A stretch of 64,000 nt of DNA from Candidatus Omnitrophota bacterium (GTDB lineage Bacteria > Acidobacteriota > Aminicenantia > UBA2199): positions 82,349 to 146,348 of the forward strand of contig JBLMYT010000132.1 in the NCBI GenBank assembly GCA_050258455.1, given 5' to 3'. The notes under the pieces are model-generated. The model ran no database searches and was not told the DNA's origin. It was given only the letters and a program-made list of their open reading frames with translations. This document shows positions 6,001 to 52,134 of this stretch, one piece after another. Position 1 is the stretch's first letter. The number at the start of each line of letters is the position of its first letter. The translations under genes and the position numbers were made by a program.

Positions 6001-9000
6001 AGCGGTGGTGTTGACACTGTTTTCCGTGGGACCGTACTCGTTAAAGATTCGGACTTGCGGTAATTTTTCAAAATGTTTCCGAATCAATTCATCCGGGAAA
6101 TTCTCGCCCGCGCAGGTAATCATTTTAATTCCTGTCAGACAATCCCCGATCTCTTCCAGCATGACATTATAAAAAACGGGAACCACGATAAAATGACTCA
6201 CGCGATGGTTGATGATGACGCGTTTGAGAACCTGAAGATCCGTGCGTTCATTATCTTTGATCAACACCAGACAGGCGCCACCCGATAATGGAGTAAAAAT
6301 ATCGGTAACCGAACTATCGAAAAAATACGGCGGCACTTGAAGCGACACGTGACCCGGTGCATATTGATAATTGTTTTTGCGCCATATTACCGTATTGACA
6401 ATAGTGCGGTGTTTGACCAAAACGCCTTTGGGTGTTCCGGAAGAACCGGAAGTGTACATCACATACGCGGCATCATTGACGGTACCCATTTGAGGTCTTG
6501 AGGAACGCTGAACATGGAGATTTAGCGCATCCGTATAGATAATTGTTGATATGTATTTACTTTTCTGTTGAACATGCGTAAGCTTTTCCCCATACCGTTG
6601 GTTTGATATCACCACGCTGACCGACGCATCATCCAGGACCACGCGCAACCGTTCACCCGGAAGCGATGCGTCGAGCGGAACATACGCGGCTCGCGCTTTC
6701 ATAATTCCCATTAGAGATATCATAAGACCGATGGAACGATCCATGATGACAGCAATTCGATCCCCGGATTGTACTCCGTTTTCGCGTTGTAAATCATGCG
6801 CCAGCCGGTTGGCTTCTTCATCGAAATGACGATAGGTGATCATTTCATTATTAAATACAATCGCCGCATGATCCGGAATTCTATCCACCCAATCCTCAAA
6901 TAAATGATAGAGAGTTTTATCTGTAGGATAGGATTCCGCAGTATCATTAAACAAAACGAGAAGTTTTTCTTTTTCCTCTTCGGATAAAATCTCTATATCC
7001 GAAAGTCGTTGATCTCGATTCTCGATAATCGAATCGACAATGGTTCTGAAATAATCTATAAACCGTAAAATGGTTTCTTCTCTAAATAAACTCGTGCTAT
7101 ATTCGACATTAATCCTTAATTTCTCTTTACTTTCAAATATAATAAAGGTTAGATCAAACTTGGATATAAAATTTTCGTATTCATAAGGTTTTAATATCAA
7201 TCCCGGGATTTGAATTTCAGATATCTCGATATTTTGAAATACAAACATCGTATCAAAAAGTGGGTTACGGGACATGTCCCTATTCTTAACCACCCGATCC
7301 ACAAGATCTTCAAACGGGTAGTCCTGGTTTTCAAACGCATTCAACGTCTTTTCTTTGACCTCTTGAAGAAACCCGTTAAATGTTTTCTCCCCCCGTGGAT
7401 AATGACGCATGGCCAGTGTATTGACAAACATGCCCAGAATTTTTTCCAGATCCGTATGACGTCGCCCGGCAACCGGAGAACCGACTACGATATCGTCCTG
7501 CTGGGATAATCCGGATAAAAAAATGTTGTATATGGTTAGAAATACCATATACATGGTGGCACCCGTTTCAAGACTTAACCGTTTCAAGTCTTCGGTCACC
7601 TCTTGGTCGATCTCAAACGAAATCGTCCGACCTTCAACACTCCGAACCGCTGGTCTTGTATAATCAATGGGAAGTTCAAGTACCGGAATGTCTTCTTCGA
7701 ATTCATGGGACCAGAAAACGCCTTGGCGTTTCAGAAACTCTTTCTGTTGGTCACTGCTTTGCCATTCTGAAAAATCTTTGTATTGAACCCGAAGTTTGGG
7801 CAAACCCTCTCCCGGGTATTCTCCTTGATGATACAATGTCATAAAATCCTTTATCATCACATTCATGGAGCTGCCGTCCGAAATGATGTGATGCATGTCT
7901 AGCATCAGGAGATGTTTATTCTCACTTATATTGAACAGTCCCACTCTCATCAGTGGGGCTTTTGTCAAATCAAAACTTCTGATAAATTCTTCTAACTCTC
8001 TTACCCCCTGACCTTCTTCGCTTCTGACCTTCTTCCTTCCCCCCTCCGTGTCCTCCGTGTGCTCCGTGAGAAAATTTATTTTAAATTCCACCTCATCGTG
8101 AATACGCTGAACCGGTTCATCATCGATCACATGAAACGATGTTCGCAAGCTTTCATGACGCTCGATTAGCCGGATGAACGTTTGTTCCAGCTTATTTTTA
8201 TCAACGTCTCCTTCCAATATAAAATAAGCCGGAATATTGTAATTGATGCCATGGTCATCCATCCGGTGTAACACATATAACCGCTTCTGTGCCGAGGATA
8301 ACTCATAAAACTCTTTCCTCTCGATCGGCTCTATCGAGAAATATTTATTTTTAACAGAGTCTTTGATATAATACGCTAATCCACGAATGGTCGAATTGTT
8401 GAATACCTCTCCCAATGGCATATTGACATGGAATTGTTTTTGAATTTTTGATATCAATACAACTGCCTTTAATGAATGTCCCCCTAACTCGAAAAAATTG
8501 TCTGCTGTTCCGATGACTTCTTTTTTTCTTCCCAATACCTCGGACCAAAGCTCCGTTAATTTCTCCTCGACCTCATTTTCCGGGGCGATATATCCCTGAT
8601 TTATTTTTATCTCAAAAGATGGTAAGGATCTACGATTTATTTTTCCTGTTACCGTAAGGGGTAACGCATCCAAACGCATAAAATAAGACGGTACCATATA
8701 ATCCGGCAATGTATGGGATAAATGGTTTCTCAATTCGGAAGTTGAGAGTGCGATATCCGAAACAACATAAGCACGAAGATATTTATCCCCCCTATCCTCT
8801 TTAATAACAACAACCGCTTCCTTTATTTTCTCATGTGATAGTAATCGATTTTCAATTTCTTCCAACTCAATTCGGAATCCCCGAATCTTCACCTGTTGAT
8901 CGAAGCGGCCCAAAAACTCAATATTCCCATCATCCGACCATCGACACAAATCTCCCGTCTTATAAAAGTTTTTGGAAAACTTCTCCAAGGTTAATTCGGG

Positions 9001-12000
9001 TCGATTCAAGTACCCGCGGGCCAATCCCTGACCTGAAATCCATAACTCACCCGCTATCCCTATACTTTGCAAATGACCGTATTTGTTTAAAATAGATAAC
9101 TTAATATTGGGTAACGGTTTTCCAATCGGAACAGTATTGCTTTTATTCTCGCGCGACAGCGAATACCAGGAGGCATATACGGTGCTTTCGGTCGGCCCAT
9201 AAATATTCTCCAATTTTACGGATGTATTCAAATCGTTGAATTTTTTGACCAGCTCAGGGAGTAACGCTTCTCCGGCTAAAAAGATATATTTTAGACTCGA
9301 TAACCGATACCTATTCCTCGTATTCAAATAACCGATAAACGCATTGAACATGGAAGGAACAAAATTAATATGAGTGACCAATCGCCTTTCAATCGTATTC
9401 AATATGACATCAGGATCTTTTTCAAACCCTTTTTCCAATACGGCTAACCGTCCCCCTCCCATAAACCATCCGAAGAGTTCGGTTACCGATACATCAAAAA
9501 CGTAAGATGTTTTTAAAAGATAAGTATCCGATTCATGAAAAGGATACTTGTCTTGCATCGCATATAATAAATTGACAACCGATGCATGATTCACCATTAC
9601 GCCTTTGGGATTCCCGGTGGAACCGGAGGTATAAATGATGTAAGCAAGGTTTGAATGTTTAGCCACAGAGGTCACAGAGGACACGGAGGGAGAGGAGAAG
9701 TTAAGAGGGTGAGAAGATGGGAGGTTAAGATGATCTAAAGCGATCACTCTCTTATCTTCTGAACTTCTTAACTTCTCAACTTCTGCATTATTGCTGGTAA
9801 GCAATAATGCCGCCCCACTGTCTTTGAGCATATAATTAATACGCTCTTGCGGTAATCCGGGATCAATGGGTAAATAAGCGCCACCGGCTTTCAAAATACC
9901 CAGGACACCAATCATTAGTTCAAGCGAACGATCAATCTTAACACCCACAATCACATCGGGGCCAACCCCTTTTTTTATTAATTCGAGCGCCAATTGATCG
10001 GATCGCTCATTCAAGTCATTGTAAGATAATTGAGGGCAGACACGCGGGTCTGCTCCTACCAAAGATGGACCTATAAGAGCGACATGACCCGGCGTTCTTG
10101 CGGCTTGTTCCTCAAATAACTGATGAATGGTTTTATCGTTTGGATATTCGATTTCCGTATCATTAAAACCAAATAATAATTTTTCCTTTTCTTCATCAGT
10201 AAGAATTTCAAAATCCGAAATCTTTCGGTCTTTATTTTCAACATTTTCAACATTTTCAACAACACCATTGAGGATATTTTTTAAATAAACAATCAATCGC
10301 TCGATCGTCTCTTTTTTAAATAACCTTGTACTGTATTCAAATGCAAATACCAGTTTTTCATCGACTTCCATCCCAGACAATGTTAAATCGAATTTGGATA
10401 TTTTAGTCTCATACGCATAAGAAGATAATTTCAATCCGGGAAGCTCCATTTCTTGCAGTTGGAAATTTTGCAACACAAACATGACATCAAACAACGGGTT
10501 GCGAGCGGTATCTCGATGGATAACGACATGTTCAACCAATTCCTCATATTGGTATTCCTGGTTCTCAAACGCACGCAATGCGTTCTCTTTGACTTCAGTA
10601 ATGAATTCGGTAAATGATTTCTCCCCTTCCGGGTAATTTCGTAATGCCAGGGTATTGATAAACATACCGACAATTTGTTCCAGGTCCGAATGGTTCCGAC
10701 CGGCAATGGGTGAACCCACAATGATATCTTCCTGATTGGTTACTTTTGATAAAAATACGGTGTATGCCGCCAGGAGTACCATATACAATGTGGCCCCGGT
10801 TTCTATCGCCAATTGATTCAAATGTCCGGTTAGCTCTTGATCGATCTCAAAATTAATGCTGCTTCCTTCAAAGCTCTGAACCACGGGCCTTGCAAAATCT
10901 AGCGGAAGTTCCAATACGGGGATCTCCCCACTAAACTCATTTAACCAAAAATCCTTTTTCTGATTTAGCGATTCTTTTTCGAATTCCCTCTTTTGCCATT
11001 CCGAAAAATCTTTGTACTGCACCCGAAGAGATGGTAAATCCTCATTGTTATATAAAGCCATGAAGTCCTGAACCATCAAATTCATGGAAGTTCCATCCGA
11101 AATGATGTGATCCATGTCGATCAACAGAAGATGTTTATTCTCCCCTATTTTTAACACTCCCACTCGTATGAGTGGGGCTGTTGTCAAATCAAAACTTCTG
11201 ATAAATTTTTCTATCTCTCTTACCCTCTGACCTTCTTCACTTCTTATCTTCTTCCTTCCCCCCGCCGTGTCCTCCGTGTGCTCCGTGAGAAAATTTATTT
11301 TAAATTCCACCTCATCGTGAATACGCTGAACCGGTTCATCATCGATCACATGAAACGATGTTCTGAAACTCTCATGTCTACGGATTAATGCCCAAAAAAT
11401 TTCTTCAAACTTTTCCTTTTGAACTTCTCCTTCCAGTAAGAAAATATACGGTACATTATAGCCTTCACTCTGCTCGTCCATTTGGTGCAGCAAATATAAG
11501 CGCTTTTGAGCGGAAGATACCGGGTAATATTCCTTCTCTTCTACCGGGAGAATCGAGTCGTGCCCCACCTGGGTCTGTTCCTTGATATATTCGGCTAATC
11601 TCCGAATGGTCGGCGTTTTGAACAACTCAGCCAATGGTATTTTTACATGCAATTCTTTATGTATCCTGGCTGCAAGGATGGTGGCTTTAAGTGAATGACC
11701 GCCAAGATCAAAAAAATCCGAATCGATCCCGATGAGGTTGGATTCAAGATTCAATACCTCGGACCACAATGAAACCAATGTCATTTCAATTTTAGTACGA
11801 GGACCGCTATAGGTTTTATCCGTCCGGGCTTGCGGCTTTGGCAAGGCACTGCGGTCGATTTTTCCATTGGACGTGAGCGGTATCCGATCGATTCTGACAA
11901 CAAAACTCGGAATCATATAATCCGGCAGCACTCCGGTCAGCAACCGCTTGATTTCAGTTGGATCGATGTCTTTATCACTCACGATATAAGCGCATAAATA

Positions 12001-15000
12001 AATATCGTCCGATTCATCGGTTCGATCTACCACCACCACTTCCTTGATCCCCCTATACTTCAATATCTGGTTTTCAATTTCGCCTAACTCGATGCGGAAT
12101 CCCCGAAGCTGAACTTGATGATCGATTCGTCCCAAATAAACCAGCTCGCCTTTTTCCAGAAACCGGGCCAAATCGCCCGACCGGTACAGCCGCTCCTCTT
12201 TTTTATAGGGATTTTCAACAAACTTCTCAACGGTTAATTCCGGCCGATTCAGGTACCCTCGGGTGACGCCAGCCCCTCCCACCATCAATTCTCCACCAAT
12301 GCCTATCGGTTGCAATTGCAGGTTTCGGTCCATGATATAAGTGGTTAAGGTAGGAATGGGCTGACCGATATTGCTCACATTCTGTTCGATTTCGCCACGA
12401 CCGATCTCTTTATAGGTCACATGAACCGTGGTTTCCGTAATACCAAACATGTTGATTAAACGGGTACTGGGATATTGCTCATGCCATTGTTTCAATTTCC
12501 CGGGATGGAGGGCTTCGCCCCCAAATATGACGGTGCGTATTGCCAAACCGTGTCTTTCCTGTTGTAAATCAACTTCAATGAACCGATAAAATGCAGATGG
12601 GGTTTGGTTCAGGATGGTTACGCCATACTGTCTCACAAGGGAAAGAAAATGCGCCGTATCTCGGGCAACCATCTTGGGAACAACGACGACTCTGCCGCCA
12701 TTTAACAGGGAGCCGAACAGTTCCCATACGGAAAAATCAAAACAATGGGAATGAAACATGGTCCATATGTCCGAGCCATTAAAGTCAAATTGAAATTTTT
12801 CGTTAAACAGCAGGCTCACGACATTGCGATGCTCCACCATCACGCCTTTGGGTCTTCCGGTGGTACCGGAGGTGTAAATGATATAAGCGAGAGAGGTGGC
12901 CGGTGGCCGGTGGCCGGCACTTGGGCAGACACGCGGGTCTGCCCCTACGCGGATTTCCCCTTGTAGGGGCGCACCCATGTGTGCGCCCGCCTTGCAGAAA
13001 CTCGGATCTGCCCCTACGGAATAATTAACCAATAAACACGCTCGACTATCCATTAACATGTAATCGATCCGGTCCCGGGGATAATCCGGATCGATCGGTA
13101 AATACGCACCGCCGGATTTTAAAATCCCTAAAATTCCGATGATCATCTCAACGGAACGTTCGGCTTTTATTGCAACGAGGGTGTCCGGCCCAACCCCCTT
13201 CTCGATTAATAATGCGGCCAATCGATCGGATTCTTCGTTCAATTCGTGGTAGGTGATTTGATGGGTGAATACGCTTGAAGTCTCAACTCGAGACGGACCG
13301 ATGACGGCAATCCGATCGGGAGTCTGAGCCGCATTTTTCTCAAAAAAATTATGAATCGTTTGATCCTTAGGGAAACCGGCCCGTTCCCCATTCCATTCCC
13401 ACAACAATTGCTCTTTTTCCACTTCGGATAGCAGGTCGATCCGGGAAATGGGAAGATGGGGGTTCACGATCACGCGTTCCAATATCTGTTGATAATGAGT
13501 CAATAATCGCGAAATCCTGCTTTGATCGTAATAGTCGCGATTGTACACCAATTGACCGCAAAAAATCTCGACGCCATGATGGATTCGCTTCTGAATCAAG
13601 AAATTCAGATCGTATTTCCCCCACCCCAGATTGGTTTCTTCGACTTCGAGAACCGCTTCTCCCAGTGTGGATTTCCAAAAGGGGGCTTCTTCATATTGAA
13701 ACAACACATCAAATAAGGCGGTCCGACTCATATCATTTTCCGGGTTTAGTTCCAGCACCAATCGGTCAAACGGCATTCCCCCGTAAATCAATGCTTCGGA
13801 CACGGTTTCGTTTAATTTCTCAAACACGTCGCTAAACGTGTGACTGCCCTCGATAACACTTCGCAAGACCAATAAATTGGCGGCGGGTCCAATCATGGGT
13901 TCCATGTCGGGACTCGGACGGTTTCCCGTACTGGTCCCCACAATAATTTCCGACTGATCACAGTATCGATGCAATAAAATTTTAAAGGCAGACAATAACA
14001 ATAATAGAACAAAATCCCCCCCCTTTTCTTTATTAAAACTAAGGATTTTATTGGTCAATGATTGGGGAAATACAACCGGGTGATGCGCTTCATGATAAAT
14101 ATGAATTAATGCCCGGGGTCTATCCGTCGGTAATTCAAATGGCTGGAGTTTACCATTTAGCTTCCGTTTCCAATAAAATAAGAGCCGATCCAGAAGTTCT
14201 TCCGAAAATGACTGCTGCCAACTGCAAAACGCAGGAAACTGGATCGCAAGTTCCGGTAATTGCGGGGATTGGCTTTCCTCAAACGCGTCATAGGATAATA
14301 CCAATTCGTTTAAAAAGAGCTCCAATGACTGTTTATCCGCCACAATATGATGAAAGGTTATTACCAATAGGAATTTTTGAGTTTCCCACCGGATTAATTT
14401 TCCCCTGATCGGAAGGTCATGGGACAGCCGGAAAGGTTTTTGGGATTCAGCGATAGCCAGGGAAAGGGCATCTGTATCGCTGAGATGACAAACGGTATCT
14501 GTGAAAAGCTTAAATTGTAACGCATTATCCTCGACCAGGATCGGTTTATTCTCTCTTGTTTCGATCCGGGTATGCAAAATCGTGTGACGTTTGATAATAT
14601 GGCAAATACTTTTTTCCAGCAATGGTTCATCGACAGAACCATTAATCGATACGATCAACGGAATATTATGATAAACCGGAGAAGATTCATAGAGATACCC
14701 GGTTTCAAATTCATTGATAAACCACAACCGTTCCTGGTGATACGACGCCTTACCTTCGGAGGTTTTCGCCGGAGGAAGAATCCGGGGAGGATACCAATGG
14801 CAGATATCGTCGTCTAACAGTAACCGGGATATGGATGTTGAGGAATGCGTGATCACTCGGTTCAGTAATTCAAGAAAACGATTCAGCATTCGCCGGATGG
14901 TTTTATTCTCAAAGAGATCAAGGTTATATTCAACGGAAACCGTTAATGTGGTTTCTCTCTCATAAATATAGATCACCAAATCAAATTTTGCATGACGATA

Positions 15001-17205
15001 ACCGGTCTCAAAAGGTTTGAGTTTCAAGGCGTTTCCCAAAACATTCGGTTGAGGCGATGTATAATTAATCATGTTTAACATCACATCAAACAACGGATGC
15101 CGGGAGGGATCTCGTGATATTTTCAAGGCTTCCAAAAGGACATCAAACGGATACGACTGATGCGCATAAGCTTCCAGGGCGATTTTTCGGACTTTCTCCA
15201 ATAATTCGGCAAACGTATTCATGCTCGTGAACCGCGTTCGTAATGCCAGGGTATTCAGATAAAATCCAATCTGGTTTTCCAGGTCCATATGTTCTCTTCC
15301 GGCGATGGGAGTGCCAACGATCATATCCGTTTGGCCACTGTAACCGTAAAACAACACATTGATCAAACCGAGAAATACCATAAACAGCGTGACATCATTT
15401 TCTTTACCCAGATTTCGCAATTTCTCGGTTAAATCTTCATCCAGATCGACCGAAACGGTATTCCCCCGATAACTTTTTATGGCCGGGCGCACAAAATCTG
15501 CCGGTAACTCCAAAACCGGTAATTCCCCTCGGAATTGTTCCAACCAGTAACGTTCATCTTCGTGCGCCTTTCCTTGCAAAAATTGCCGATTTTGCCATGC
15601 GGCAAAATCTTTATATTGAATCCGCAACCGTGCCAACGGATTTTGTTTGCCCTGTCGGTATGCATCATAGAGTGCCCTCACCTCGGAGATGAAAATATCC
15701 ATAGATACCGCATCACTGATAATGTGGTGCATATTGAATAGGCACACATATTTTTCCATATCCAATCGGATGAGTCTGACTCTTAATAATGGCCCCCGGG
15801 CCAGGTCGAATAGAAATTCCGATTCTTTACAAGCCTCTTCTTTGATTCTACCTTCCTTGTCATTCAGTTGCCGAAAATCCGATTCCTCGACATTAAAGTC
15901 GCTTTGTCCGGGAAGTTTGACACGTTGTTTCGGTTCTCCATCGATTGGAATAAATACGGTACGTAAACTTTCATGCCGGTTTACCAGGGTATAAAAGGTT
16001 TGTATCAATGCGTTGGTATCCAATGCCCCATCGATTATCGACGCACTGGGCATATTAAACGCGATACAACTGTCTTCAATCTGGCTCCCTGTCCAAACGC
16101 GCGTTTGCGAATGCGTGAGATCGTAATATTCTTTTTCCTCCACGGGCTGAATCCGTTCATATACCGCGTCGTCCGATTCCCTGATTTTTTTTACCCGGCC
16201 AGGGGACGCGTTGGCGCCTGATGAGTGGCCTCTCAATTGGAAATTACCGGAGTACTCGACTTTAGCTGGGTCCTTTAAAATATCCATCCATGTTTTGACC
16301 AACTTTTCCCGGATATCATTTGGGGAGTTGCAATTATCGATTTCTCTTTTTATTGGCTCATGGATGGCTTTATTAAATAACTGCTTCTTTTCTTCTTCGG
16401 GGATAACTTCAATTTCCGATACCTTTATTTCTAAATTCGATAACACCATTTCCGAAAGATGATGAAAATGATCCCCAATTCGTTTGATCGCTTCACGGTT
16501 ATAAAAACGCGCATCATAGTGGATTTTACCATTAATTAATCCGTTAACGCGTGAAAACAAAAACACCACTTTCGGACTGACACGTGAAATATCCCCTCTA
16601 TTCTGGATATTTTCCAGGATAATCGCCACATCGAAGAGCGGGCACTCTTTTTCAGAAAACCTCGCCCCCAACTGCCGAACCAATACCTCAAACGGATAAT
16701 TGCGATTTTCCTCGGAATCAATGACGGTCTGCCTGACCTGAAGCAGTAATTCTTTAAAGGTCATATGATCCGTCAACCGGTTCCGCAATGCCAATATCGT
16801 ATTGATAAACTCACCCCGATTGCCTTCATTATTCTTAACCTTTCCCCCGTTATTCTTTTCTCCGTGTCCCCCGTGTGCTCCGTGAGAAACCCCCGTTCCA
16901 ATGATGATATCCTCATGATCCGTGTATTTTGAAAGTAAAAGAGTCAGTATGGCACTCAAGACAATATGAAGACGGATATCCGAATCCGCACTCAGTTTCA
17001 TTAAACGCGACGAAAGTTCTTCATCAAAAAAAATATCGATCGAATTTCCCCCCAAAACCTCGACGTTTTCCTGTATGGGCGTATAAGGAAAATGACTTTT
17101 TATCAAATCGCCGGATAATTTTTCAAGCCAATATTCCTTTTCTCTCACCTTCTTTCCCGCTGCCATCCATAATCTGTCAAAACCGGATAAATCTCTGACA
17201 CTCAT
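1..17205 (-). CDS. Multimodular non-ribosomal peptide synthetase; four A domains, an epimerization domain and a terminal thioesterase are visible; the 3' end is partial and continues past the window start
   Basis: The minus-strand frame (codon first positions divisible by 3) is open from the ATG at 17205 (MSVRDLSGFD..., GGAG 7 nt upstream) to position 1. The ORF track shows no competing long ORF here because the stop lies outside the window. Reverse-complement translation gives the A3 motif LAYIIYTSGTTGRPKG at about 12850 and similar YTSGSTG motifs near 9640, 6470 and 1860. Carrier-protein motifs DLGGHSL (about 11700) and ELGGNSLDL (about 660) are present. A condensation motif MHHIISDG lies at about 7900. 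The epimerization motifs IHHLVIDGISW (about 4760) and EGHGRE (about 4290) are followed by a DCL-type condensation start YPLSPMQEGMLFH. A thioesterase serine motif TWSWGGHIG lies at about 260-290. Confidence 0.92.
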   Translation of the reverse strand, partial: MSVRDLSGFDRLWMAAGKKVREKEYWLEKLSGDLIKSHFPYTPIQENVEVLGGNSIDIFFDEELSSRLMKLSADSDIRLHIVLSAILTLLLSKYTDHEDIIIGTGVSHGAHGGHGEKNNGGKVKNNEGNRGEFINTILALRNRLTDHMTFKELLLQVRQTVIDSEENRNYPFEVLVRQLGARFSEKECPLFDVAIILENIQNRGDISRVSPKVVFLFSRVNGLINGKIHYDARFYNREAIKRIGDHFHHLSEMVLSNLEIKVSEIEVIPEEEKKQLFNKAIHEPIKREIDNCNSPNDIREKLVKTWMDILKDPAKVEYSGNFQLRGHSSGANASPGRVKKIRESDDAVYERIQPVEEKEYYDLTHSQTRVWTGSQIEDSCIAFNMPSASIIDGALDTNALIQTFYTLVNRHESLRTVFIPIDGEPKQRVKLPGQSDFNVEESDFRQLNDKEGRIKEEACKESEFLFDLARGPLLRVRLIRLDMEKYVCLFNMHHIISDAVSMDIFISEVRALYDAYRQGKQNPLARLRIQYKDFAAWQNRQFLQGKAHEDERYWLEQFRGELPVLELPADFVRPAIKSYRGNTVSVDLDEDLTEKLRNLGKENDVTLFMVFLGLINVLFYGYSGQTDMIVGTPIAGREHMDLENQIGFYLNTLALRTRFTSMNTFAELLEKVRKIALEAYAHQSYPFDVLLEALKISRDPSRHPLFDVMLNMINYTSPQPNVLGNALKLKPFETGYRHAKFDLVIYIYERETTLTVSVEYNLDLFENKTIRRMLNRFLELLNRVITHSSTSISRLLLDDDICHWYPPRILPPAKTSEGKASYHQERLWFINEFETGYLYESSPVYHNIPLIVSINGSVDEPLLEKSICHIIKRHTILHTRIETRENKPILVEDNALQFKLFTDTVCHLSDTDALSLAIAESQKPFRLSHDLPIRGKLIRWETQKFLLVITFHHIVADKQSLELFLNELVLSYDAFEESQSPQLPELAIQFPAFCSWQQSFSEELLDRLLFYWKRKLNGKLQPFELPTDRPRALIHIYHEAHHPVVFPQSLTNKILSFNKEKGGDFVLLLLLSAFKILLHRYCDQSEIIVGTSTGNRPSPDMEPMIGPAANLLVLRSVIEGSHTFSDVFEKLNETVSEALIYGGMPFDRLVLELNPENDMSRTALFDVLFQYEEAPFWKSTLGEAVLEVEETNLGWGKYDLNFLIQKRIHHGVEIFCGQLVYNRDYYDQSRISRLLTHYQQILERVIVNPHLPISRIDLLSEVEKEQLLWEWNGERAGFPKDQTIHNFFEKNAAQTPDRIAVIGPSRVETSSVFTHQITYHELNEESDRLAALLIEKGVGPDTLVAIKAERSVEMIIGILGILKSGGAYLPIDPDYPRDRIDYMLMDSRACLLVNYSVGADPSFCKAGAHMGAPLQGEIRVGADPRVCPSAGHRPPATSLAYIIYTSGTTGRPKGVMVEHRNVVSLLFNEKFQFDFNGSDIWTMFHSHCFDFSVWELFGSLLNGGRVVVVPKMVARDTAHFLSLVRQYGVTILNQTPSAFYRFIEVDLQQERHGLAIRTVIFGGEALHPGKLKQWHEQYPSTRLINMFGITETTVHVTYKEIGRGEIEQNVSNIGQPIPTLTTYIMDRNLQLQPIGIGGELMVGGAGVTRGYLNRPELTVEKFVENPYKKEERLYRSGDLARFLEKGELVYLGRIDHQVQLRGFRIELGEIENQILKYRGIKEVVVVDRTDESDDIYLCAYIVSDKDIDPTEIKRLLTGVLPDYMIPSFVVRIDRIPLTSNGKIDRSALPKPQARTDKTYSGPRTKIEMTLVSLWSEVLNLESNLIGIDSDFFDLGGHSLKATILAARIHKELHVKIPLAELFKTPTIRRLAEYIKEQTQVGHDSILPVEEKEYYPVSSAQKRLYLLHQMDEQSEGYNVPYIFLLEGEVQKEKFEEIFWALIRRHESFRTSFHVIDDEPVQRIHDEVEFKINFLTEHTEDTAGGRKKIRSEEGQRVREIEKFIRSFDLTTAPLIRVGVLKIGENKHLLLIDMDHIISDGTSMNLMVQDFMALYNNEDLPSLRVQYKDFSEWQKREFEKESLNQKKDFWLNEFSGEIPVLELPLDFARPVVQSFEGSSINFEIDQELTGHLNQLAIETGATLYMVLLAAYTVFLSKVTNQEDIIVGSPIAGRNHSDLEQIVGMFINTLALRNYPEGEKSFTEFITEVKENALRAFENQEYQYEELVEHVVIHRDTARNPLFDVMFVLQNFQLQEMELPGLKLSSYAYETKISKFDLTLSGMEVDEKLVFAFEYSTRLFKKETIERLIVYLKNILNGVVENVENVENKDRKISDFEILTDEEKEKLLFGFNDTEIEYPNDKTIHQLFEEQAARTPGHVALIGPSLVGADPRVCPQLSYNDLNERSDQLALELIKKGVGPDVIVGVKIDRSLELMIGVLGILKAGGAYLPIDPGLPQERINYMLKDSGAALLLTSNNAEVEKLRSSEDKRVIALDHLNLPSSHPLNFSSPSVSSVTSVAKHSNLAYIIYTSGSTGNPKGVMVNHASVVNLLYAMQDKYPFHESDTYLLKTSYVFDVSVTELFGWFMGGGRLAVLEKGFEKDPDVILNTIERRLVTHINFVPSMFNAFIGYLNTRNRYRLSSLKYIFLAGEALLPELVKKFNDLNTSVKLENIYGPTESTVYASWYSLSRENKSNTVPIGKPLPNIKLSILNKYGHLQSIGIAGELWISGQGLARGYLNRPELTLEKFSKNFYKTGDLCRWSDDGNIEFLGRFDQQVKIRGFRIELEEIENRLLSHEKIKEAVVVIKEDRGDKYLRAYVVSDIALSTSELRNHLSHTLPDYMVPSYFMRLDALPLTVTGKINRRSLPSFEIKINQGYIAPENEVEEKLTELWSEVLGRKKEVIGTADNFFELGGHSLKAVVLISKIQKQFHVNMPLGEVFNNSTIRGLAYYIKDSVKNKYFSIEPIERKEFYELSSAQKRLYVLHRMDDHGINYNIPAYFILEGDVDKNKLEQTFIRLIERHESLRTSFHVIDDEPVQRIHDEVEFKINFLTEHTEDTEGGRKKVRSEEGQGVRELEEFIRSFDLTKAPLMRVGLFNISENKHLLMLDMHHIISDGSSMNVMIKDFMTLYHQGEYPGEGLPKLRVQYKDFSEWQSSDQQKEFLKRQGVFWSHEFEEDIPVLELPIDYTRPAVRSVEGRTISFEIDQEVTEDLKRLSLETGATMYMVFLTIYNIFLSGLSQQDDIVVGSPVAGRRHTDLEKILGMFVNTLAMRHYPRGEKTFNGFLQEVKEKTLNAFENQDYPFEDLVDRVVKNRDMSRNPLFDTMFVFQNIEISEIQIPGLILKPYEYENFISKFDLTFIIFESKEKLRINVEYSTSLFREETILRFIDYFRTIVDSIIENRDQRLSDIEILSEEEKEKLLVLFNDTAESYPTDKTLYHLFEDWVDRIPDHAAIVFNNEMITYRHFDEEANRLAHDLQRENGVQSGDRIAVIMDRSIGLMISLMGIMKARAAYVPLDASLPGERLRVVLDDASVSVVISNQRYGEKLTHVQQKSKYISTIIYTDALNLHVQRSSRPQMGTVNDAAYVMYTSGSSGTPKGVLVKHRTIVNTVIWRKNNYQYAPGHVSLQVPPYFFDSSVTDIFTPLSGGACLVLIKDNERTDLQVLKRVIINHRVSHFIVVPVFYNVMLEEIGDCLTGIKMITCAGENFPDELIRKHFEKLPQVRIFNEYGPTENSVNTTAYELRPESSKAFIGKPISNVRVYILDKYLHPVPIGVMGEMCLAGSSLAVGYLNNPELTNQKFLPRFFQKAGRRRQRIYRTGDMGRWLADGNLEFLGRVDTQVKIRGMRIEIGEIENCLMKHVDIKEVVVQIRHDDSGSNVLCAYLVPHPSSPMHHSFDPAGLKEYLSGLLPHYMIPSYFTVMEKIPINPNGKIDMNALPEPWMEIENQYAAPRNEIERELVRIWEGVLGKKNIGINDNFFYIGGDSIKSIQIISRMNHAGYKLEMKDLFQYPLISELSSHVKKIKRIPDQSAITGIVPLTPIQKMFFNSSPTEPHHYNQAVMFYSQERFDKEILKLVFKEIQTHHDALRMTYSINKELNTVVQISHGLDHPLSFEEYELRHADEIQIKANRIQAGIDLERGPLMKVALFHLEDGDRLLIVIHHLVIDGISWRILFEDIETLYSQYKRGETPTLTLKTDSFKFWSEKLSEYANSKNFLKEIPYWSNLESHSNGIHIPTDFDGDENNGADIRNVSFGLNERETGLLIGEINRIYNTEVNDILLTALGMGIKKTFENPESEVMIDHLLIASEGHGREEIMEDIDISRTLGWFTIEYPVWFDMTYAHDIGRQIKEVKETLRKIPNKGIGYGILKYLTDEENKKEIEFKLKPQLIFNYLGQFDADIKQISQFEIAKESAGNSQSIANRREYGLEINGMITNNCLNMTLSYNQTHFKKETIEALIDNFSSQLKRIILFCSEKENPEFTPADFTYKGLSIDTVEQLMKSYGDIEDIYTLSPMQEGMLFHALVEESSSYFEQTSYRLKGELNIEQVKHSLNELARRHDVLRTTFVYKDMDRPIQVVLKNRAIDFYFEDIINIGSEEQKEKFIKDFKANDKKRSFDLGKEPLARASILRLDHSTYEFIWSFHHILMDGWCIGILNSEFFEIYNAYVQHRVYQLPITKPYRSYIQWLEKQDKKESAAYWEHVLDGFEEQTGIPQSKIVRDNSQEYRNDRFSFELDKEKTAELAKLAARYHVTVNIVTRVLWGVLLGKYNGKDDVVFGAVVSGRPAGFEGIESMVGLFINTIPVRIRFEGKTKFHSLLQHIQEQAIVGEAYHYHPLAEVQSKSSLKQNLIDHIFIFENYPIAEQIEGYGKKNKIAFAITNVESFEQTTYNLNILLAGSDKLTVTFQYNGNVYDQDYIKRIACHFRVAIDQVIEDKELRIDELTFLSEEEKIRILDEFNNTNRDYSKDKTIHQLFEEQAGRTPGHIAVIGSTVRAFGAKPLQITYQELNERSDQLAHELMQKGVQSSMIVGIKIQRSVEMIMGILGILKTGSAYLPIDYEYPQDRIDYILKDSQARLLVTANNQEVQKLGSSDVKNVFSLDPLNHSTSQPLHFFSSPATFLAYVIYTSGSTGKPKGVMIAHRNVVNFITGITEFVPFTMNDRILSLTTISFDIFGLETLVPLTKGSVVVVGSREDQLNTETSGVIFERENISIFQVTPSRLQSMVLFPEVMTFLRSLKFLLVGGEAFPESLLEKIRPFINGQIFNMYGPTETTIWSTIKNLTCSDRITIGTPIANNQVYIIDRMRRLQPIGVVGEICIGGEGMARGYLNRPGLTDERFLFWRSRRIYMTGDLGRWLDDGTIEFLGRIDNQVKIRGFRIELGEIESRLNAHSGIKDAVVIDRGENERKYLCAYIVAEQSSGVPIPSYQEFKIYLEESLPTYMVPACFIQIDKIPLNANGKMDRRALPQPLESDFHSDGVYEGPKTRMQRIVAGIWKDVLNREKVGIQDNFFELGGNSLDLVKVSNKLREKLNREIPVATLFNHPTIHSLVLCLTAHQLPGSSKQVPGNFVMLNGSLESEGNIFLVHEVLGDVGAYMEFSQQLGTRFNCWGIEAEKLRNYAPRNETIEQISAKYISQIKEIQAHGPYYIATWSWGGHIGLEMALQLERMNEEIALLAFFDCLGPDFLSGKMYPPFSLQTEKDFLNDFFVSTGNRGYLDEISDLEQLWLKAVEIITSNPVLVEQLR

Positions 17206-17389
17206 TTTAAAAAAATCTCCTTATTGCTTATGAGCCCTTACAAATGATCGTTGGATTTTTACAAAATTCTGACTTTTTAAGGTAGCATAATAACATATTT
17301 AAATTATTTGTTCAATGACAACGATAACCAATCATCGGAATTTAAAAAATTATATTCCTTTACGTGATTTTTTTTAATAATCCCGGAAA

Positions 17390-17800
17390 CTTTTCATTCA
17401 TTTCCCAAAAATTATCTAACATTTCCGAAAACTTATCACATGTTTCGACAAACTGCTAATAAATCGCAGAAATTTTTCATCCATTTCCGAAATCTTACAA
17501 TTAACTTCTGCAAATTTTTAACACGTTTCGACAAACTAATAACGTTTTGCGGAAATTTTCAATGCATTACCGTAAATTTTTAACGCACTACCGCAAACGT
17601 TTAATGCATCTCCGCAAAATTTCAATCAAATCCCGAAAATTTTCAATGTTTTTCAAAATCCAGTAACGCATTTCGACAATTTTTTAACCTTTTCCGAAAA
17701 ACCTGCAACGCCATCCGGCAAACGGTTAACAGCTACCGAAATTTTTTAATCCCGTTCCACGAACTTTCTGTCACTTCCTGAAAATAATCCAAAAAGGCTT
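17390..17800. promoter_or_regulatory. AT-rich divergent promoter region carrying about 19 degenerate repeats of the form CCG-N-AAA-W-TTTT-YAAYGC with a roughly 21 bp period
   Basis: Direct reading of the sequence, e.g. ttccgaaaacttatcacatg / tttcgacaaactgctaataaa / ttccgaaatcttacaattaac / ccgcaaaatttcaatcaaatc. The array lies between the NRPS start (17205, minus) and the phosphoesterase start (17852, plus). Confidence 0.6.
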
Positions 17801-17851
17801 GAATATTTTCTCAAAAGACTTTATACTTATCGGTTAATGAATAGGATTTGA

Positions 17852-18595
17852 ATGAAATATTTGATTTTTAGCGACATTCACAGCAATATGGAAGCCTTTG
17901 AAGAGATGCTCCATTCTCCGCTCTTCAAAGAAGCAGATAAATATTTGTTCCTGGGGGACCTTGTCGGATACGGCGCCAGTCCCGATGAAACCATTACCCG
18001 ATTCAGAGAACTGAAAAATACCTCCTGCATTCGCGGAAACCACGACAAAGTGATTGCCAACCTGGAATCGTCTTCCCTCTTTAACCCGGTAGCCGCTTTC
18101 TCCGCGGAATGGAGCAAACTCCAAATCTCTCCGGATAATCTCCGCTTTCTCCGAGAACTCAAAACCGGACCGGATACGGTCGACCATTTCATCACCATTT
18201 GCCACGGGTCGAACTTCGACGAAGATTATTACGTATTCTCCATGTTTGAAGCTGTCGAATCCTTCAAATTTATGAATTCATCGATATCCATCGGATTTTT
18301 CGGCCACACCCATTTCCCCGTGATCTATCTCATGCGAAACGAAAAAATCGATATCGTTCAACTGACTACCGAAACCCGTATCAAACTCGACCCCAATACC
18401 CGTTACCTGATTAACCCGGGCTCCATCGGCCAACCCCGGGACAAAAACCCCAACCCCAGTTTCATTCTATTCGATTCGATCAAAAAAGAAATCCACTTTA
18501 CCCGCTTTTCATATAATATTAGTGAAACCCAACGAAAAATAAGAGCTGCCGGACTCCCGGAAATTCTTGCCACTCGGCTGGAGTCAGGTATATGA
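17852..18595 (+). CDS. Metallophosphoesterase (calcineurin-like phosphoesterase, YfcE-like)
   Basis: MKYLIFSDIHSN ... LFLGDLVGYG ... IRGNHD ... GHTH motifs. Confidence 0.85.
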   Translation: MKYLIFSDIHSNMEAFEEMLHSPLFKEADKYLFLGDLVGYGASPDETITRFRELKNTSCIRGNHDKVIANLESSSLFNPVAAFSAEWSKLQISPDNLRFLRELKTGPDTVDHFITICHGSNFDEDYYVFSMFEAVESFKFMNSSISIGFFGHTHFPVIYLMRNEKIDIVQLTTETRIKLDPNTRYLINPGSIGQPRDKNPNPSFILFDSIKKEIHFTRFSYNISETQRKIRAAGLPEILATRLESGI

Positions 18596-18627: not shown

Positions 18628-19662
18628 ATGGGATTTGAGAAACTTCAAAAATTAATAGACGAGATTCTCGATGAACGCAGAGACCGAGTTTATGAGAAAA
18701 TCGACCGCATTACCAATAATATTATTCTTCAACTCGAAGAATTAAAAGCCCTGGATGATTTTCATGAGTATACGATACCGGAAAATTTCCGGATGGAGGA
18801 CAAACCGAAAACCGAACCCTCTGTCGATATATTACATCCATATATTAAACAAATATCATCATCCGCCAACCAACTGGATTTAATCAACAACTTTCTGGAA
18901 GGAATCAACCGCTTTTGCACCCGGGCGGCGTTGTTTCTCCTCCGCGACGATAAACTGGTCGGTTGGAAAGGTTCGGGATTTTCAGCCCGCGAGGGAAACA
19001 TCGGCGACGACGAGATCAAAAAACTCTTCTTTTCCCTATCCGCAAACACGATCTTTCGGTATGTACTGGATAAACGCATCCCCTATTCGGGAGCCCCTCT
19101 TTCCCAACCGGATGACCACATTCTTTACAGTCGATTCGGTGGCGAAGAACCCGAAAAAATATTTGCGCTTCCTTTCTTTGTCAAGGGAAAGCCCCAGGCC
19201 GTCGTGTATACCGACACCTTCGATGAAAAACCGATCGGCGAAAAGGAAATCGAAATCCTTGCGACTGTCGCGGAAATGAGCCTTGATCTCCTCCCGCTCC
19301 GTCAAAAAATCCTTGCCAAAATAAAGACTCAGGAATACCCCGAAGAATCGGATTCGGCCCAATTTCACGCCTACAGTCCCGAACCCGAAGAACGCACCCC
19401 CGCTCCTGTTAAGGAAAACGATCCCGAACGCCTGGCGCGAGTCATCATTAACGATATTTACCTTTATAATAAAGCCAAAATCGATGATATTGTCAGAACA
19501 GGCCAAAACCTGTTCCAATTTCTTCAAACTACGATTCTTCAATCGCGCGAGCTCTACCTCAACAAATACCGGGATATTGCTCCCTTCGAACGCCAATTGA
19601 TTGAGACCCTGGCCCGCGGAAAAAAAGAATTACTCAAAGGTTACGCGTTTGAAACTCAATAA
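18628..19662 (+). CDS. Hypothetical protein with a GAF-like central domain and helical N- and C-terminal regions
   Basis: A 344-aa ORF with a GGAGG ribosome-binding site. The fold assignment is tentative, based on a pattern resembling GAF domains. Confidence 0.5.
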   Translation: MGFEKLQKLIDEILDERRDRVYEKIDRITNNIILQLEELKALDDFHEYTIPENFRMEDKPKTEPSVDILHPYIKQISSSANQLDLINNFLEGINRFCTRAALFLLRDDKLVGWKGSGFSAREGNIGDDEIKKLFFSLSANTIFRYVLDKRIPYSGAPLSQPDDHILYSRFGGEEPEKIFALPFFVKGKPQAVVYTDTFDEKPIGEKEIEILATVAEMSLDLLPLRQKILAKIKTQEYPEESDSAQFHAYSPEPEERTPAPVKENDPERLARVIINDIYLYNKAKIDDIVRTGQNLFQFLQTTILQSRELYLNKYRDIAPFERQLIETLARGKKELLKGYAFETQ

Positions 19663-19691
19663 CTACATGAACGAAAAATAATCGAATCAAC

Positions 19692-20777
19692 ATGGAACCT
19701 AACAAAATCACAGTCGGAATTATCTTTGGCGGTCAATCGGCGGAACACGACGTCTCCTTAAAGTCCGCTCATGCGTTATACACCCACCTCGATAAGGATC
19801 AATACACCCCCTTGTTTATCTATATATCCCGCGACACCGGGCGATGGCAGATTATCGACGAGCAGACCTTTATTTCTCGCGACATGCACGCCTTACCCTC
19901 TTCCGGTTACTCGTTCCTCCCCTGGGGCGATTCGGTGGGGGAACACATGAACGCGGATATTTATTTTCCAATGCTCCACGGCCCCAACGGGGAAGATGGA
20001 AAAATCCAATCTCTCCTGGAACTGGCCGGCAAACCGTACGTTGGCGCCAACAGTCTGGCTTCGGCGCTGGCCATGGATAAAGCGGTAGCCAAAATGTTGT
20101 TTCAACGCGCCGGGCTTCAGGTGACCGACTATGTACTGGCCCAAAGGTACGATTATGACGAAATTAAAAAAAGGATTGACGCTCGATCGCTGACTTATCC
20201 CCTATTTATCAAACCCAATGCCATGGGATCCTCAGTGGGTATCTCCAAAGTGACCGAAGAAAGCCAATTAAAGGAAGCGCTTGAACTGGCCTTTCAATAC
20301 GACCGGAAAGTACTGATCGAACAGGGACTGGATATTCGGGAAATCGAAGTATCGGTCATGGGAAACGACGCACTCATGGTGTCTCGCCCCGGAGAATTGA
20401 TCCCGCACAACGACTTTTATGATTACAACGATAAATACATCGATGGTAAAACCGCGTTTTATATGCCCGCCCACCTCGAACCGGAGTTCGAACAACAGAT
20501 TCGAATCACCGCCGAAGACGCATACCGGGCTCTCTTTCTCAACGGAATGTCCCGGGTCGATCTGTTCATCGAAAAACAAACACGGACCATATACGTGAAC
20601 GAAATCAACACGATTCCCGGTTTTACCGAAATCAGTATGTTTCCCAAGCTGTGGACACTGCAAGATATTTCATTTACCGAACTCATCACCCGATTGATCG
20701 GATACGGGTTTGAATACTGGAATCAACAGCCGATTTCCACGGCCCTGCATGACGGAATAACCCTTCCCTCCCAATGA
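19692..20777 (+). CDS. ddl: D-alanine--D-alanine ligase
   Basis: HGPNGEDGKIQSLLELAGKPYVGANSLASALAMDKAVAKML and a C-terminal ATP-grasp domain. Confidence 0.9.
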   Translation: MEPNKITVGIIFGGQSAEHDVSLKSAHALYTHLDKDQYTPLFIYISRDTGRWQIIDEQTFISRDMHALPSSGYSFLPWGDSVGEHMNADIYFPMLHGPNGEDGKIQSLLELAGKPYVGANSLASALAMDKAVAKMLFQRAGLQVTDYVLAQRYDYDEIKKRIDARSLTYPLFIKPNAMGSSVGISKVTEESQLKEALELAFQYDRKVLIEQGLDIREIEVSVMGNDALMVSRPGELIPHNDFYDYNDKYIDGKTAFYMPAHLEPEFEQQIRITAEDAYRALFLNGMSRVDLFIEKQTRTIYVNEINTIPGFTEISMFPKLWTLQDISFTELITRLIGYGFEYWNQQPISTALHDGITLPSQ

Positions 20778-32131: not shown

Positions 32132-32150
32132 TTCAAAAGTTACTTTTGAA
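32132..32150. terminator. Perfect 9-bp inverted repeat (ttcaaaagt-t-acttttgaa) between convergent genes, overlapping the stop codon of the XRE gene
   Basis: Seen directly in the sequence. It has no strong T-tract, so it is a weak candidate. Confidence 0.3.
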
Positions 32151-32619
32151 CTTTTGCCCTTTCGGCCCTTTTCTTTTTCTCGCGATTTTCCCTTTCCTGC
32201 TGGTTTAAAAAATCCTTTACTTCGTCTTTAAAAAGCGTTTTGCATTCCATTAGCTTTGCAAGGACAACCTGTTCGACTACGGGAATCTGCATCAGGTTCA
32301 TTAATTCATTGTATTGCTCAAATTTAGGATCCCCATATTGAACGTTGGGATAACTAATGGTAGAGGCACCCACGGCTGAAGGATGGGTCCGCATATACAT
32401 TTCGCCTTCCCCGGTGACCAGCCAATTAATATTTAGCCCATACTTTTCATAAAAGTATTGTAAATAATTAATCTTGGGAAAGGTCGTCCCATGTTCAATA
32501 TTCGTAATCGTTGATTGATGAACTTTAAGCTCAGCAGCAAGAAGATGCTGCGCCTTTTTCCTGTCAATGCGGAACGTTTTGAACCGCTGACCGACGTCTT
32601 GTTTCAGTTGTTTCAGCAT
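32140..32619 (-). CDS. XRE-family helix-turn-helix transcriptional regulator
   Basis: An HTH motif QHLLAAELKVHQSTITNIEHG, plus a YGLNINWLVTGEGEM motif shared with the neighbouring paralog. Confidence 0.8.
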   Translation of the reverse strand: MLKQLKQDVGQRFKTFRIDRKKAQHLLAAELKVHQSTITNIEHGTTFPKINYLQYFYEKYGLNINWLVTGEGEMYMRTHPSAVGASTISYPNVQYGDPKFEQYNELMNLMQIPVVEQVVLAKLMECKTLFKDEVKDFLNQQERENREKKKRAERAKVQK

Positions 32620-33023: not shown

Positions 33024-33470
33024 TTATTTTTTTTTTAAAGCTTTTCGAATATTCTCATCAACGATATCTTTATTCTTGTGAATATATTCCTGAAAAAAAC
33101 CTAAAACTGCATATTTGGCCACCGGCGCGTTTTCCAAGTACCATAAAAGTTGATTGTAGTCGTCTTCGTACGTATCGGTGGAGATTTCTTCGTCGCCTTT
33201 GGGATAATCGGCATCCCATTTTTCAATCATCTTTCCCTTACCCGAGAGCCACCAGTTGATATTCAGTCCATACAATTTAAAGAGGGCTAGCATTAAAATA
33301 GCGGACGGCTTGGTTTTGCCTGCCTCTACCTCGGTAAGCGTATCCCGCGAAAGAGATGTTTGATCTGCAATCTCCGGGATTGTTAAATTATGAGATTTTC
33401 GAAATAATTTAAATCGCTTACCGATATCTTCGATATTAAAATCAAACTTTACCAGGCACTTTGTTTCCAT
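33024..33470 (-). CDS. XRE-family helix-turn-helix transcriptional regulator (paralog of 32140-32619)
   Basis: An HTH motif and the shared YGLNINWWLSGKGKM motif. Confidence 0.75.
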   Translation of the reverse strand: METKCLVKFDFNIEDIGKRFKLFRKSHNLTIPEIADQTSLSRDTLTEVEAGKTKPSAILMLALFKLYGLNINWWLSGKGKMIEKWDADYPKGDEEISTDTYEDDYNQLLWYLENAPVAKYAVLGFFQEYIHKNKDIVDENIRKALKKK

Positions 33471-45920: not shown

Positions 45921-45987
45921 TACACTCCAAACTCCTCATTGTTGATAATGTTGATAATGCTGATGATGTTGATGACGTTGATGATGT

Positions 45988-52085: not shown

Positions 52086-52134
52086 TTTATTATTAAAATT
52101 TGTGTGCCTCGGCAAGGATGAAATCAAGGCACCA

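Follow-up and report, generated by a model that had tools for sequence, protein, structure and literature searches.

A helically phased array of 21-bp repeats, predicted to be strongly curved, between an NRPS gene and a conserved housekeeping block in an uncultured bacterium

Between a giant NRPS gene and a divergently transcribed metallophosphoesterase gene, the stretch of uncultured bacterial genome analysed here (64,000 nucleotides, hereafter the window) carries an array of 19 diverged 21-bp units whose runs of A and T recur in register with the DNA helix, and whose predicted curvature places it at or near the top of the whole window. The array is best explained by tandem amplification, long ago, of a unit of ~21 bp, and our preferred reading, held tentatively and a little short of even confidence, is that it would serve as an architectural curved-DNA element, modulating the promoter of the putatively acquired NRPS gene through RNA polymerase or a nucleoid protein. 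That phased A-tracts curve the DNA ahead of promoters is textbook knowledge, but natural bacterial cases are short. The present one is a 38-turn array of a single unit, with a predicted turn of one full circle, lying between two (predicted) promoters, at the edge of a probably acquired NRPS gene, in an uncultured phylum.

Results

The intergenic gap and its flanks

The gap between the two genes measures 646 bp (17206..17851), and the features in and around it are collected in Table 1. Its flanks are those that a preliminary description of the region had given, with the NRPS on the minus strand and the metallophosphoesterase diverging from it on the plus strand. The same description had the repeat filling a gap of 640 bp; the position within the gap stands and the full coverage does not, as the array takes up 395 of the 646 bp (61%). 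The reading frame of the NRPS is open up to the edge of the window, and the GC content of this gene is ~41%, as against 46-50% for the housekeeping block.

Table 1. Positions of the genes, predicted promoters and repeat features of the intergenic gap, numbered from the first letter of the window.
Feature	Position	Strand	Remarks
Giant NRPS gene, 5' part	1..17205	-	>5,700 codons, runs off the window; ATG at 17205, RBS AAGGAG, Condensation domains
Alternative candidate NRPS promoter, predicted	17287..17315	-	TTGAAC-17-(TG)TATTAT (TGnTATTAT); from consensus scan
A6 and T8 tracts, left of the array	17340..17383	.	Lengthen the stretch predicted to be curved; onset of the sliding-mean curvature maximum at ~17354-17370
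Best candidate NRPS promoter, predicted	17349..17377	-	TTAAAA-17-TATAAT; 10/12 matches; -35 is 7 bp from the first array unit
21-bp repeat array	17384..17778	.	19 diverged head-to-tail units of 20-22 bp; PWM-based segmentation
Degenerate 20th unit	17779..17798 (segmentation: 17779..17799)	+	Merges into the A-tract, UP-element-like region GAAAATAATCCAAAAAGG directly upstream of the phosphoesterase -35
Predicted phosphoesterase promoter	17799..17827	+	TTGAAT-17-TATACT; conserved in five Aminicenantes lineages
Metallophosphoesterase gene	17852..18595	+	Opens a gene block that is conserved across Aminicenantes (with a hypothetical protein, ddl, ruvX, mltG, others)

The promoters listed are consensus matches, and are to be read as predicted sites and not as mapped start sites. 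The array spans the interval between the two predicted divergent -35 regions, in agreement with the location between divergent promoter-like sites that had been claimed for it. On its right side, the phosphoesterase promoter is conserved in the five lineages as CCAAAAAGG-CTTGAAT-17-TATACTTA, with A5 and GAAAATAAT standing at about -41..-55 of this promoter (as counted from a start site that is itself only predicted), and the similarity of the relatives to the window ends at ~17786, where the array ends. The ATCCAAAAAGG part of the degenerate 20th unit is common to the relatives, and therefore belongs to the ancestral phosphoesterase promoter. Birth of the array unit by duplication of this ancestral UP-like segment (17779..17799) was considered and finds no support, manual comparison giving only 8 matches in 21 positions.

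Anatomy of the array

Iterative PWM segmentation resolves the array into 19 consecutive units with the plus-strand consensus CGAAAAyTTTTnAAyrCATTTC, which bears out both the count of about 19 and the motif CCG-N-AAA...TTTT..AAYGC of the preliminary description. The sequence is non-coding, with a GC content of 34%. Spacings from unit to unit are, in order, 22, 20, 21, 20, 21, 21, 21, 20 and 21 bp for the first nine and 21, 21, 21, 20, 20, 22, 21, 20 and 21 bp for the remaining nine, with a length change of +/-1 bp at half of the junctions. The repeat is visible by eye once the sequence from 17340 to 17860 is set in rows of 21 bases. At lags 21, 42 and 62 the base-match autocorrelation of the array reaches 0.528, 0.523 and 0.530, with z values of 10.4, 9.6 and 10.1 relative to 1000 dinucleotide-preserving shuffles, none of which goes beyond z 4.7 at any lag. 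The 21-bp periodicity for which an autocorrelation check had been advised is thus real and significant. Tandem Repeats Finder picks up just the two best-preserved stretches of the array because the units have diverged; they are ~53% identical to one another in pairwise comparison (mean 0.48-0.58) and 68% identical to the consensus. A weak higher-order period of 83 bp, equal to four units, suggests a block duplication in the past of the array.

Within the consensus, AATGCATT comes after a palindromic core, GAAAATTTTC. C outweighs G on the plus strand (24% vs 10%), and tracts of 3 bp or more number 19 for A and 20 for T in the array. Conservation is spread unevenly over the columns of the unit (chi2 52.1, df 19, p 6e-5): the AAA of columns 3-5 is retained in 16-19 of the 19 units, the A of column 12 in 18, the TT of columns 17-18 in 14-16 and the TT of columns 7-8 in 14-15. 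A C at the unit boundary is kept in 14 of the 19, some other G/C positions (CG) are kept too, and around half of the units still show a recognisable CCGnAAA. These retained G/C positions, together with the asymmetry between the strands, are not required by curvature alone, and could reflect either a shared ancestry of the units or base-specific recognition.

An independent Logan assembly (L001, from run SRR24085925) matches the window without a difference over 11,735 bp, from the 5' end of the NRPS through the array into the housekeeping block, with the same array copy number in both assemblies, and this identity makes an assembly artefact or a chimeric join an unlikely source of the array.

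Identities that do not fit

A number of the identities that a tandem repeat might ordinarily assume were rejected. A phase-variable contingency repeat is at odds with the low identity of the units (~53%) and with the copy number shared by the two assemblies, and a CRISPR array with units that are contiguous and without spacers. A coding heptad repeat (21 bp being seven codons) would have to tolerate 2-10 stops in each of the six frames; the gap contains no ORF of at least 50 aa, and the conserved columns of the array have no codon pattern. A link to transposition was likewise dismissed, as no such gene adjoins the array.

The preliminary description had also termed the array iteron-like. Plasmid and phage iterons are 17-22-bp direct repeats that are bound by Rep initiators in groups of 3-7 units, and the parC-type arrays of type II partition centromeres consist of 10-20-bp tandem repeats that are wrapped by ParR. 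With the former the array shares a unit of ~21 bp, direct orientation, two-turn spacing and AT-rich surroundings, and with the latter the disposition of helically phased tandem repeats around a promoter, which a protein could wrap into a superhelix or ring. Tandem ~21-bp direct repeats in an AT-rich gap between divergent genes could mark the replication origin or the partition centromere (iterons, parC/parS-like) of an integrated or secondary replicon, but we hold this identity to be extremely improbable, and in the replication sense the iteron-like label fails. The array is flanked by an NRPS and a metallophosphoesterase gene; no rep, par or dnaA gene lies in the flanks within the window, and no parMR or parAB operon (parM/parR, parA/parB) was found among the annotated ORFs. 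The gap (17206..17851) contains no DnaA box at up to one mismatch, window-wide counts of such boxes are at chance level, and the GC skew is negative on both sides of the array, with no switch. Furthermore, the 19 units are far more numerous and, at ~53% identity, far more diverged than functional iterons, the locus is not a plasmid, and its right flank is the chromosomal housekeeping block conserved in the relatives.

It is very unlikely, in our estimation, that the array acts as RNA, be it as part of a long 5' leader of the NRPS or as a separate minus-strand transcript whose CGGAAA motifs would titrate or recruit an RNA-binding protein in the manner of a CsrB sponge. The minus strand does fold better than its shuffles (z -3.46, with z -0.51 for the plus strand) and contains GGA 12 times, against 7.6 expected. 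However, quasi-palindromic repeats would by themselves give such a fold z-score, and only around half of the units contain GGA. All promoter-like candidates on the minus strand are located left of the array and none right of it, and Rfam offers no match to the array, the search having returned two chance-level hits (E 0.11 and 0.58) that score far below the gathering scores and fall outside the array.

Helical phasing and predicted curvature

The lattice fitted to the units has a period of 20.75 bp (10.4 bp per turn) with a residual sd of 0.42 bp; the maximum deviation is 0.96 bp, so that over 19 units the drift never reaches 1 bp. Phase coherence across all 19 units is R = 0.96 at 10.4 bp per turn, falling to 0.68 at 10.5 and to 0.22 at 10.6, and the earlier equation of one unit with two helical turns is upheld. 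In the spectra of AA, TT and AA-minus-TT the strongest line falls at 10.35-10.4 bp and not at 21 bp, with a power of 35-59 against a shuffle maximum of 14.7. This line is the signature of helically phased A/T tracts, and A or T runs of 3-4 bp or more that recur at 10-11 bp, as they do in the array, are what characterises intrinsically curved DNA.

Paths of the helix axis were computed under the Bolshoy-Trifonov, De Santis and AA-wedge models, all three of them static dinucleotide wedge models, and the implementation was checked on classical controls. Of the Hagerman polymers, (GAAAATTTTC)n is curved and (GTTTTAAAAC)n is straight, and the models returned 20-27 degrees per turn for the first and 0.2-7 for the second; phased A6 tracts gave 24-28 degrees per turn and unphased ones ~2. 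Depending on the model, the array holds the single most curved stretch of 315 bp in the 64-kb window or one within its top 0.1%, with an end-to-end/contour ratio at 315 bp of 0.04-0.43 against a median of 0.89-0.92. As this ratio is not monotonic beyond 360 degrees of bending (a pure consensus array gives 0.46-0.78), measures of local curvature and of in-plane turning were added. The array averages a predicted local curvature of 9-12.4 degrees per turn, and it is here that the sliding mean peaks within the window. Its helix axis is predicted to make a net in-plane turn of 375-444 degrees, or about one full circle, along a path that is near-planar (rms out-of-plane 16-55 Å vs in-plane 112-196 Å). 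In the wedge models the two predicted -35 hexamers would come to lie 276-526 Å apart along a contour of 1440 Å.

Any 21-bp repeat adds up the bend of its unit in phase, and for this reason the magnitude of the curvature was tested against permuted and decayed arrays. When the order of the columns was permuted, with the period and column composition retained, just 0-5% of the arrays were equally curved, and when the consensus was decayed uniformly at random to equal identity, 0-0.3% matched the observed AA/TT power or curvature. The modelled array is also more curved than its own majority consensus. Taken together, the decay simulations and the comparison with the consensus argue that, as far as bending is concerned, the units do not vary at random. 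The predicted curvature thus exceeds both the genomic background and controls of the same composition, and intrinsic curvature from phased A/T tracts, as raised in the preliminary description, finds strong in silico support under all three wedge models.

Relatives and distribution

Close relatives of the phosphoesterase are all Aminicenantes, and the NCBI label of the exact protein is that of a 'Candidatus Omnitrophota' MAG. Related loci were fetched by way of this protein and comprised 21 GTDB species-representative loci, 16 of which are Aminicenantes-type orthologues (68-80% protein identity), with the further addition of closer relatives at 80-84% identity (among them four loci at 82-84%) and the 9.1-Mb genome CP070627. 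The block of phosphoesterase, hypothetical protein, (SLT), ddl, ruvX and mltG is present in all relatives examined. The gene upstream of the phosphoesterase differs in nearly every lineage, the upstream gap of the relatives being mostly ~100-300 bp, and both the NRPS and the array are absent from all ~20 Aminicenantes relatives examined. A search with the first 500 aa of the NRPS yielded no homologue above 47% identity, so that there is no orthologous NRPS promoter for comparison; the locus of the NRPS homologue P0123 is without the array. The lower GC content of the NRPS gene, its absence in the relatives and the point at which their similarity to the window stops place the array at a synteny breakpoint, on the side that varies and was probably acquired. 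The gene itself was probably acquired horizontally.

Elsewhere in the 64-kb window the unit produces one marginal PWM hit, at 33532, and nothing more; no copy of it was found in ~350 kb of related loci, and a generic periodicity scan of ~415 kb of fetched DNA found no second 21-bp array. In two of the fetched loci (L037 and L038) the periodicity signal was strong at every lag, and these look like scaffold gaps (runs of N). Metagenomes scanned with the two-unit IUPAC pattern TTYAAYGCANNNCCGNAAANNTTYAAY gave 9 isolated hits with no neighbouring units and no 21-bp periodicity, compared to a chance expectation of ~7 (a rough estimate in which the collection size is assumed), and a viral collection scanned with the same pattern gave one single hit, similarly devoid of neighbouring units or 21-bp periodicity. 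Such a pattern is narrow, and diverged arrays would escape it. A blastn search against plasmids and phages returned no match to the array. The preliminary description had allowed for a common repeat unrelated to promoters, which the unit is not; as far as this narrow pattern search and the accompanying scans reach, the array is an orphan, a single and lineage-specific instance.

A second and unrelated intergenic tandem array occurs in the window at 56686..57260, with a 42/43-bp unit in ~13.6 copies, and the genome may simply be tolerant of such arrays.

These observations bear upon the proposal that the 21-bp array is a functionless minisatellite, generated by slippage or unequal recombination at the synteny breakpoint and now in decay, with a curvature that is incidental to its founding unit. 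Such an origin would sit well with an orphan that is absent from ~20 related loci, that has only the 9 chance-level hits in metagenomes and no match in plasmids or phages, and that is situated exactly at the end of synteny with the relatives; the +/-1-bp changes at half of the junctions, the block duplication to which the weak 83-bp (four-unit) period points and the presence of the second array in the window are also in its favour. We nonetheless regard it as unlikely. The units have diverged heavily, yet the lattice drifts by <1 bp over 19 of them, and their columns are unevenly conserved (p 6e-5). The AA/TT phasing and the curvature beat 99.7-100% of the uniform-decay simulations, and the array is more curved than its own consensus and closely fitted to the interval between the promoter-like sites.

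Discussion

The array described here is robust and unusual, and it is one instance in an uncultured genome. Its helical phasing, its predicted curvature, the uneven conservation that favours A/T-tract positions, its position and the acquisition context of the NRPS all argue for the architectural reading, on which we tentatively settle; against it weigh the orphan status of the array, the conserved G/C positions and the second tandem array. Under the architectural reading, the runs of A and T would be held in register with the helix at 10.4 bp, giving rise to a nearly planar, intrinsically curved segment of 400 bp that would describe approximately one full circle in the space between the -35 regions of the divergent promoters, at the junction of the acquired NRPS and the conserved housekeeping block. 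RNA polymerase could wrap this pre-bent, AT-rich platform through contacts of the alpha-CTD/UP-element type, and/or a curvature-preferring nucleoid-associated protein could coat it. The outcome may be that transcription of the NRPS operon is set, most plausibly damped or conditioned, and that the two promoters are brought close in space. We infer which proteins take part, in which direction they act and that the curvature is selected, as opposed to incidental; from its position we likewise infer that the array may exert control over the NRPS, as had been suggested.

To our knowledge, no curvature-binding nucleoid protein has been identified for this phylum. The architectural reading has one analogue in UP-element/A-tract activation. 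Another is H-NS, which acts on curved upstream DNA, as at rcsA, where AT-rich curved DNA is a target of silencing (PMC6070653). The low GC content of the NRPS and its absence in the relatives place the array in the kind of context where AT-rich curved DNA is a known silencing target.

A bolder reading, which we consider quite improbable, would make the array a wrapping or nucleation platform upon which a hypothetical oligomerising DNA-binding protein of the lineage, either a nucleoid protein or a cluster regulator, closes ~400 bp into a nucleoprotein ring that couples both promoters. Were this to be true, a tandem repeat would here gate a giant acquired biosynthetic operon, as a bacterial counterpart of the enhanceosome or the positioned nucleosome.

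A different view of the same sequence is that it offers some 19 cooperative sites to one sequence-specific protein, for instance of the winged-helix (OmpR/PhoB/SARP) type or a ribbon-helix-helix protein that occupies direct repeats head to tail. By polymerising on one helical face, such a protein would turn the NRPS operon, and possibly its divergent neighbour, on or off. Arrays of direct repeats are familiar as operators (PhoP DRu arrays, SARP heptamers and ArcA repeats), the SARP examples govern biosynthetic gene clusters, and known cluster and response regulators bind direct repeats phased at 11 or 22 bp in just this position (PMC2275107, PMC5930380, PMC3798270). The array resembles such operators in its strictly phased direct repeats of two-turn period (20.75 bp) on one face of the helix, and in that it lies directly upstream of, and abuts, both predicted -35 hexamers; the strand-specific G/C positions that are kept, such as the boundary C and the CCGnAAA of about half of the units, also favour this view. 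The known operators of the OmpR/PhoB/SARP/ArcA kind, however, comprise 2-8 repeats with a well-conserved core of 6-7 bp and have a cognate regulator gene nearby. The present array far exceeds them with its 19 sites, its units are only ~53% identical in pairwise comparison and 68% identical to the consensus, and its strongest columns (AAA, A12 and TT) belong to A/T tracts, leaving a weak core in place of a compact base-specific one. Within the window, to which the search for regulators was limited (the rest of the NRPS cluster lying beyond it), no regulator gene adjoins the array, and no isolated unit was found upstream of other genes save for the marginal PWM hit at 33532. The preliminary description had pointed to neighbouring XRE regulators as candidates; the nearest HTH genes are in fact two XRE paralogues (32140..32619 and 33024..33470) that lie ~15 kb away, past a dozen housekeeping genes and in an unrelated neighbourhood, and on grounds of distance and context a link to the array was rejected. 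We therefore view control by a dedicated cooperative regulator as possible but rather doubtful. It is not mutually exclusive with the architectural reading.

How does the array compare with DNA already known to be curved? Known natural bacterial examples are not tandem repeats, and their phased tracts number 3-6 within 30-100 bp. The array, by comparison, repeats a single unit 19-20 times, stays coherent for ~38 helical turns and is predicted to turn by ~360 degrees, and its consensus core is literally the GAAAATTTTC of Hagerman's curved polymer (GAAAATTTTC)n. What it has in common with curved promoter-upstream DNA, of the UP-element/RNAP-wrapping and H-NS-targeted kinds (PMC6070653), are A/T runs at a helical period of 10.4 bp, an AT-rich composition and a position directly upstream of predicted -35 hexamers and beside a probably acquired gene, with the reservation that the curvature here is predicted from sequence. 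The array differs from known curved promoter DNA in scale and construction, and not in kind. Sustained curvature through A-tract phasing over long arrays is also found in eukaryotes and their kinetoplasts. The bend of the kinetoplast minicircle is one such case. Another is curved satellite DNA (PMC8122249). The array is similar to both in the length and persistence of its (predicted) curvature, and unlike either in that they belong to another domain of life, with a different genomic role and copy number, and have no association with promoters.

If the array is without function, it illustrates how closely a minisatellite in decay can resemble a curved element made by design. If it does have a function, it would stand as an extreme example from nature in which the shape of DNA, or a nucleoid protein that reads this shape, controls a silent biosynthetic cluster, and the removal or rephasing of the array would then provide a practical handle for activation of the cluster in a heterologous host.

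Other features of the window

The XRE-type HTH genes, about 15 kb from the 21-bp array, encode two paralogues that have in common the motif ...YGLNINW..G.G.M. Their surroundings are low in GC (36%) and carry small ORFs alongside, and this stretch is possibly an islet of mobile or phage origin.

A second tandem array, non-coding and unrelated to that at 17384..17778, repeats a 42/43-bp unit about 13.6 times with 80-86% matches, each unit holding an internal sub-repeat of ~21 bp (GCTGCCACCT) twice. Its predicted curvature is unremarkable (0.66-0.88), no Rfam match was found for it, and the only ORFs that cross it are short ones generated by the repeat itself.

Beyond this second array comes a predicted AAA-ATPase (PF09820), and after it a 1084-aa protein with TIR, AAA_16 (STAND) and TPR regions, the last of which accounts for a 126-bp DNA repeat; the pair is defence-like. 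Elsewhere, small outer-membrane beta-barrel (OMP_b-brl) genes form a tandem of three paralogues. On the minus strand, a 9-bp tandem repeat (TGTTGATRA, about 6 copies) gives rise to a 23-codon ORF rich in Ile and Asn (MNIINVINIISIINIINNEEFGV, translated by hand from the sequence), whose ATG shares an ATGA overlap with the stop codon of an asparagine-synthase-like gene, itself adjoined by a gene for a glutaminase/deamidase-domain protein. The small ORF could encode either a leader peptide or a small peptide resembling RiPPs.

Positions of the features discussed
Feature	Locus	Position	Strand
XRE-type HTH protein, 159 aa	Window	32140..32619	minus
XRE-type HTH protein, 148 aa	Window	33024..33470	minus
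Shorter SLT-domain ORF	Window	36169..37386	
TGTTGATRA repeat	Window	45921..45991	minus
Asparagine-synthase-like gene	Window	45988..47967	
Glutaminase/deamidase-domain protein, 1030 aa	Window	47974..51066	
OMP_b-brl genes	Window	51249..53219	minus
NAD-binding dehydrogenase gene (array flank)	Window	55633..56565	
Second tandem array	Window	56686..57260	
Unannotated ORF (array flank)	Window	57442..58560	
AAA-ATPase and TIR/AAA_16/TPR genes	Window	58670..63657	
126-bp repeat	Window	61978..63327	
Every-lag self-match	L037 (CP070627)	~15380..15775	
Every-lag self-match	L038 (CP070627)	~9050..9440, ~11065..11460, ~16705..17095	
Phosphoesterase promoter	Window	17794..17832	
Phosphoesterase promoter	L002	5800..5835	
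Phosphoesterase promoter	L003	5941..5975	
Phosphoesterase promoter	L023		
Phosphoesterase promoter	L025		

Related loci and the phosphoesterase promoter

In the related loci L023, L025 and L037, an SLT-domain lytic transglycosylase of 680-736 aa separates the conserved hypothetical gene from ddl; the window lacks it at that position (18628..20777) and has the shorter SLT-domain ORF instead. The protein exactly matching the phosphoesterase (17852..18595) bears the NCBI label 'Candidatus Omnitrophota bacterium', and several GTDB records carrying the block are titled 'uncultured Clostridia', while all close homologues and all syntenic loci belong to Aminicenantes/Acidobacteriota MAGs. The taxonomic labels look unreliable.

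Certain stretches of CP070627, a 9.1-Mb 'complete' Aminicenantes record, match themselves at every lag, and from this lag signal were taken as putative scaffold gaps (runs of N). One adjoins the 'partial' NRPS fragment P0123. CP070627 probably represents a scaffold with gaps, in which the NRPS genes look fragmented.

The sigma-70-type promoter 5' of the phosphoesterase gene, AAAAAGG-CTTGAATATTTT-N-AAAAA-N-TTATACTTA, is well conserved, being kept across Aminicenantes lineages with only 70-84% protein identity, and offers a useful reference for promoters of the phylum.
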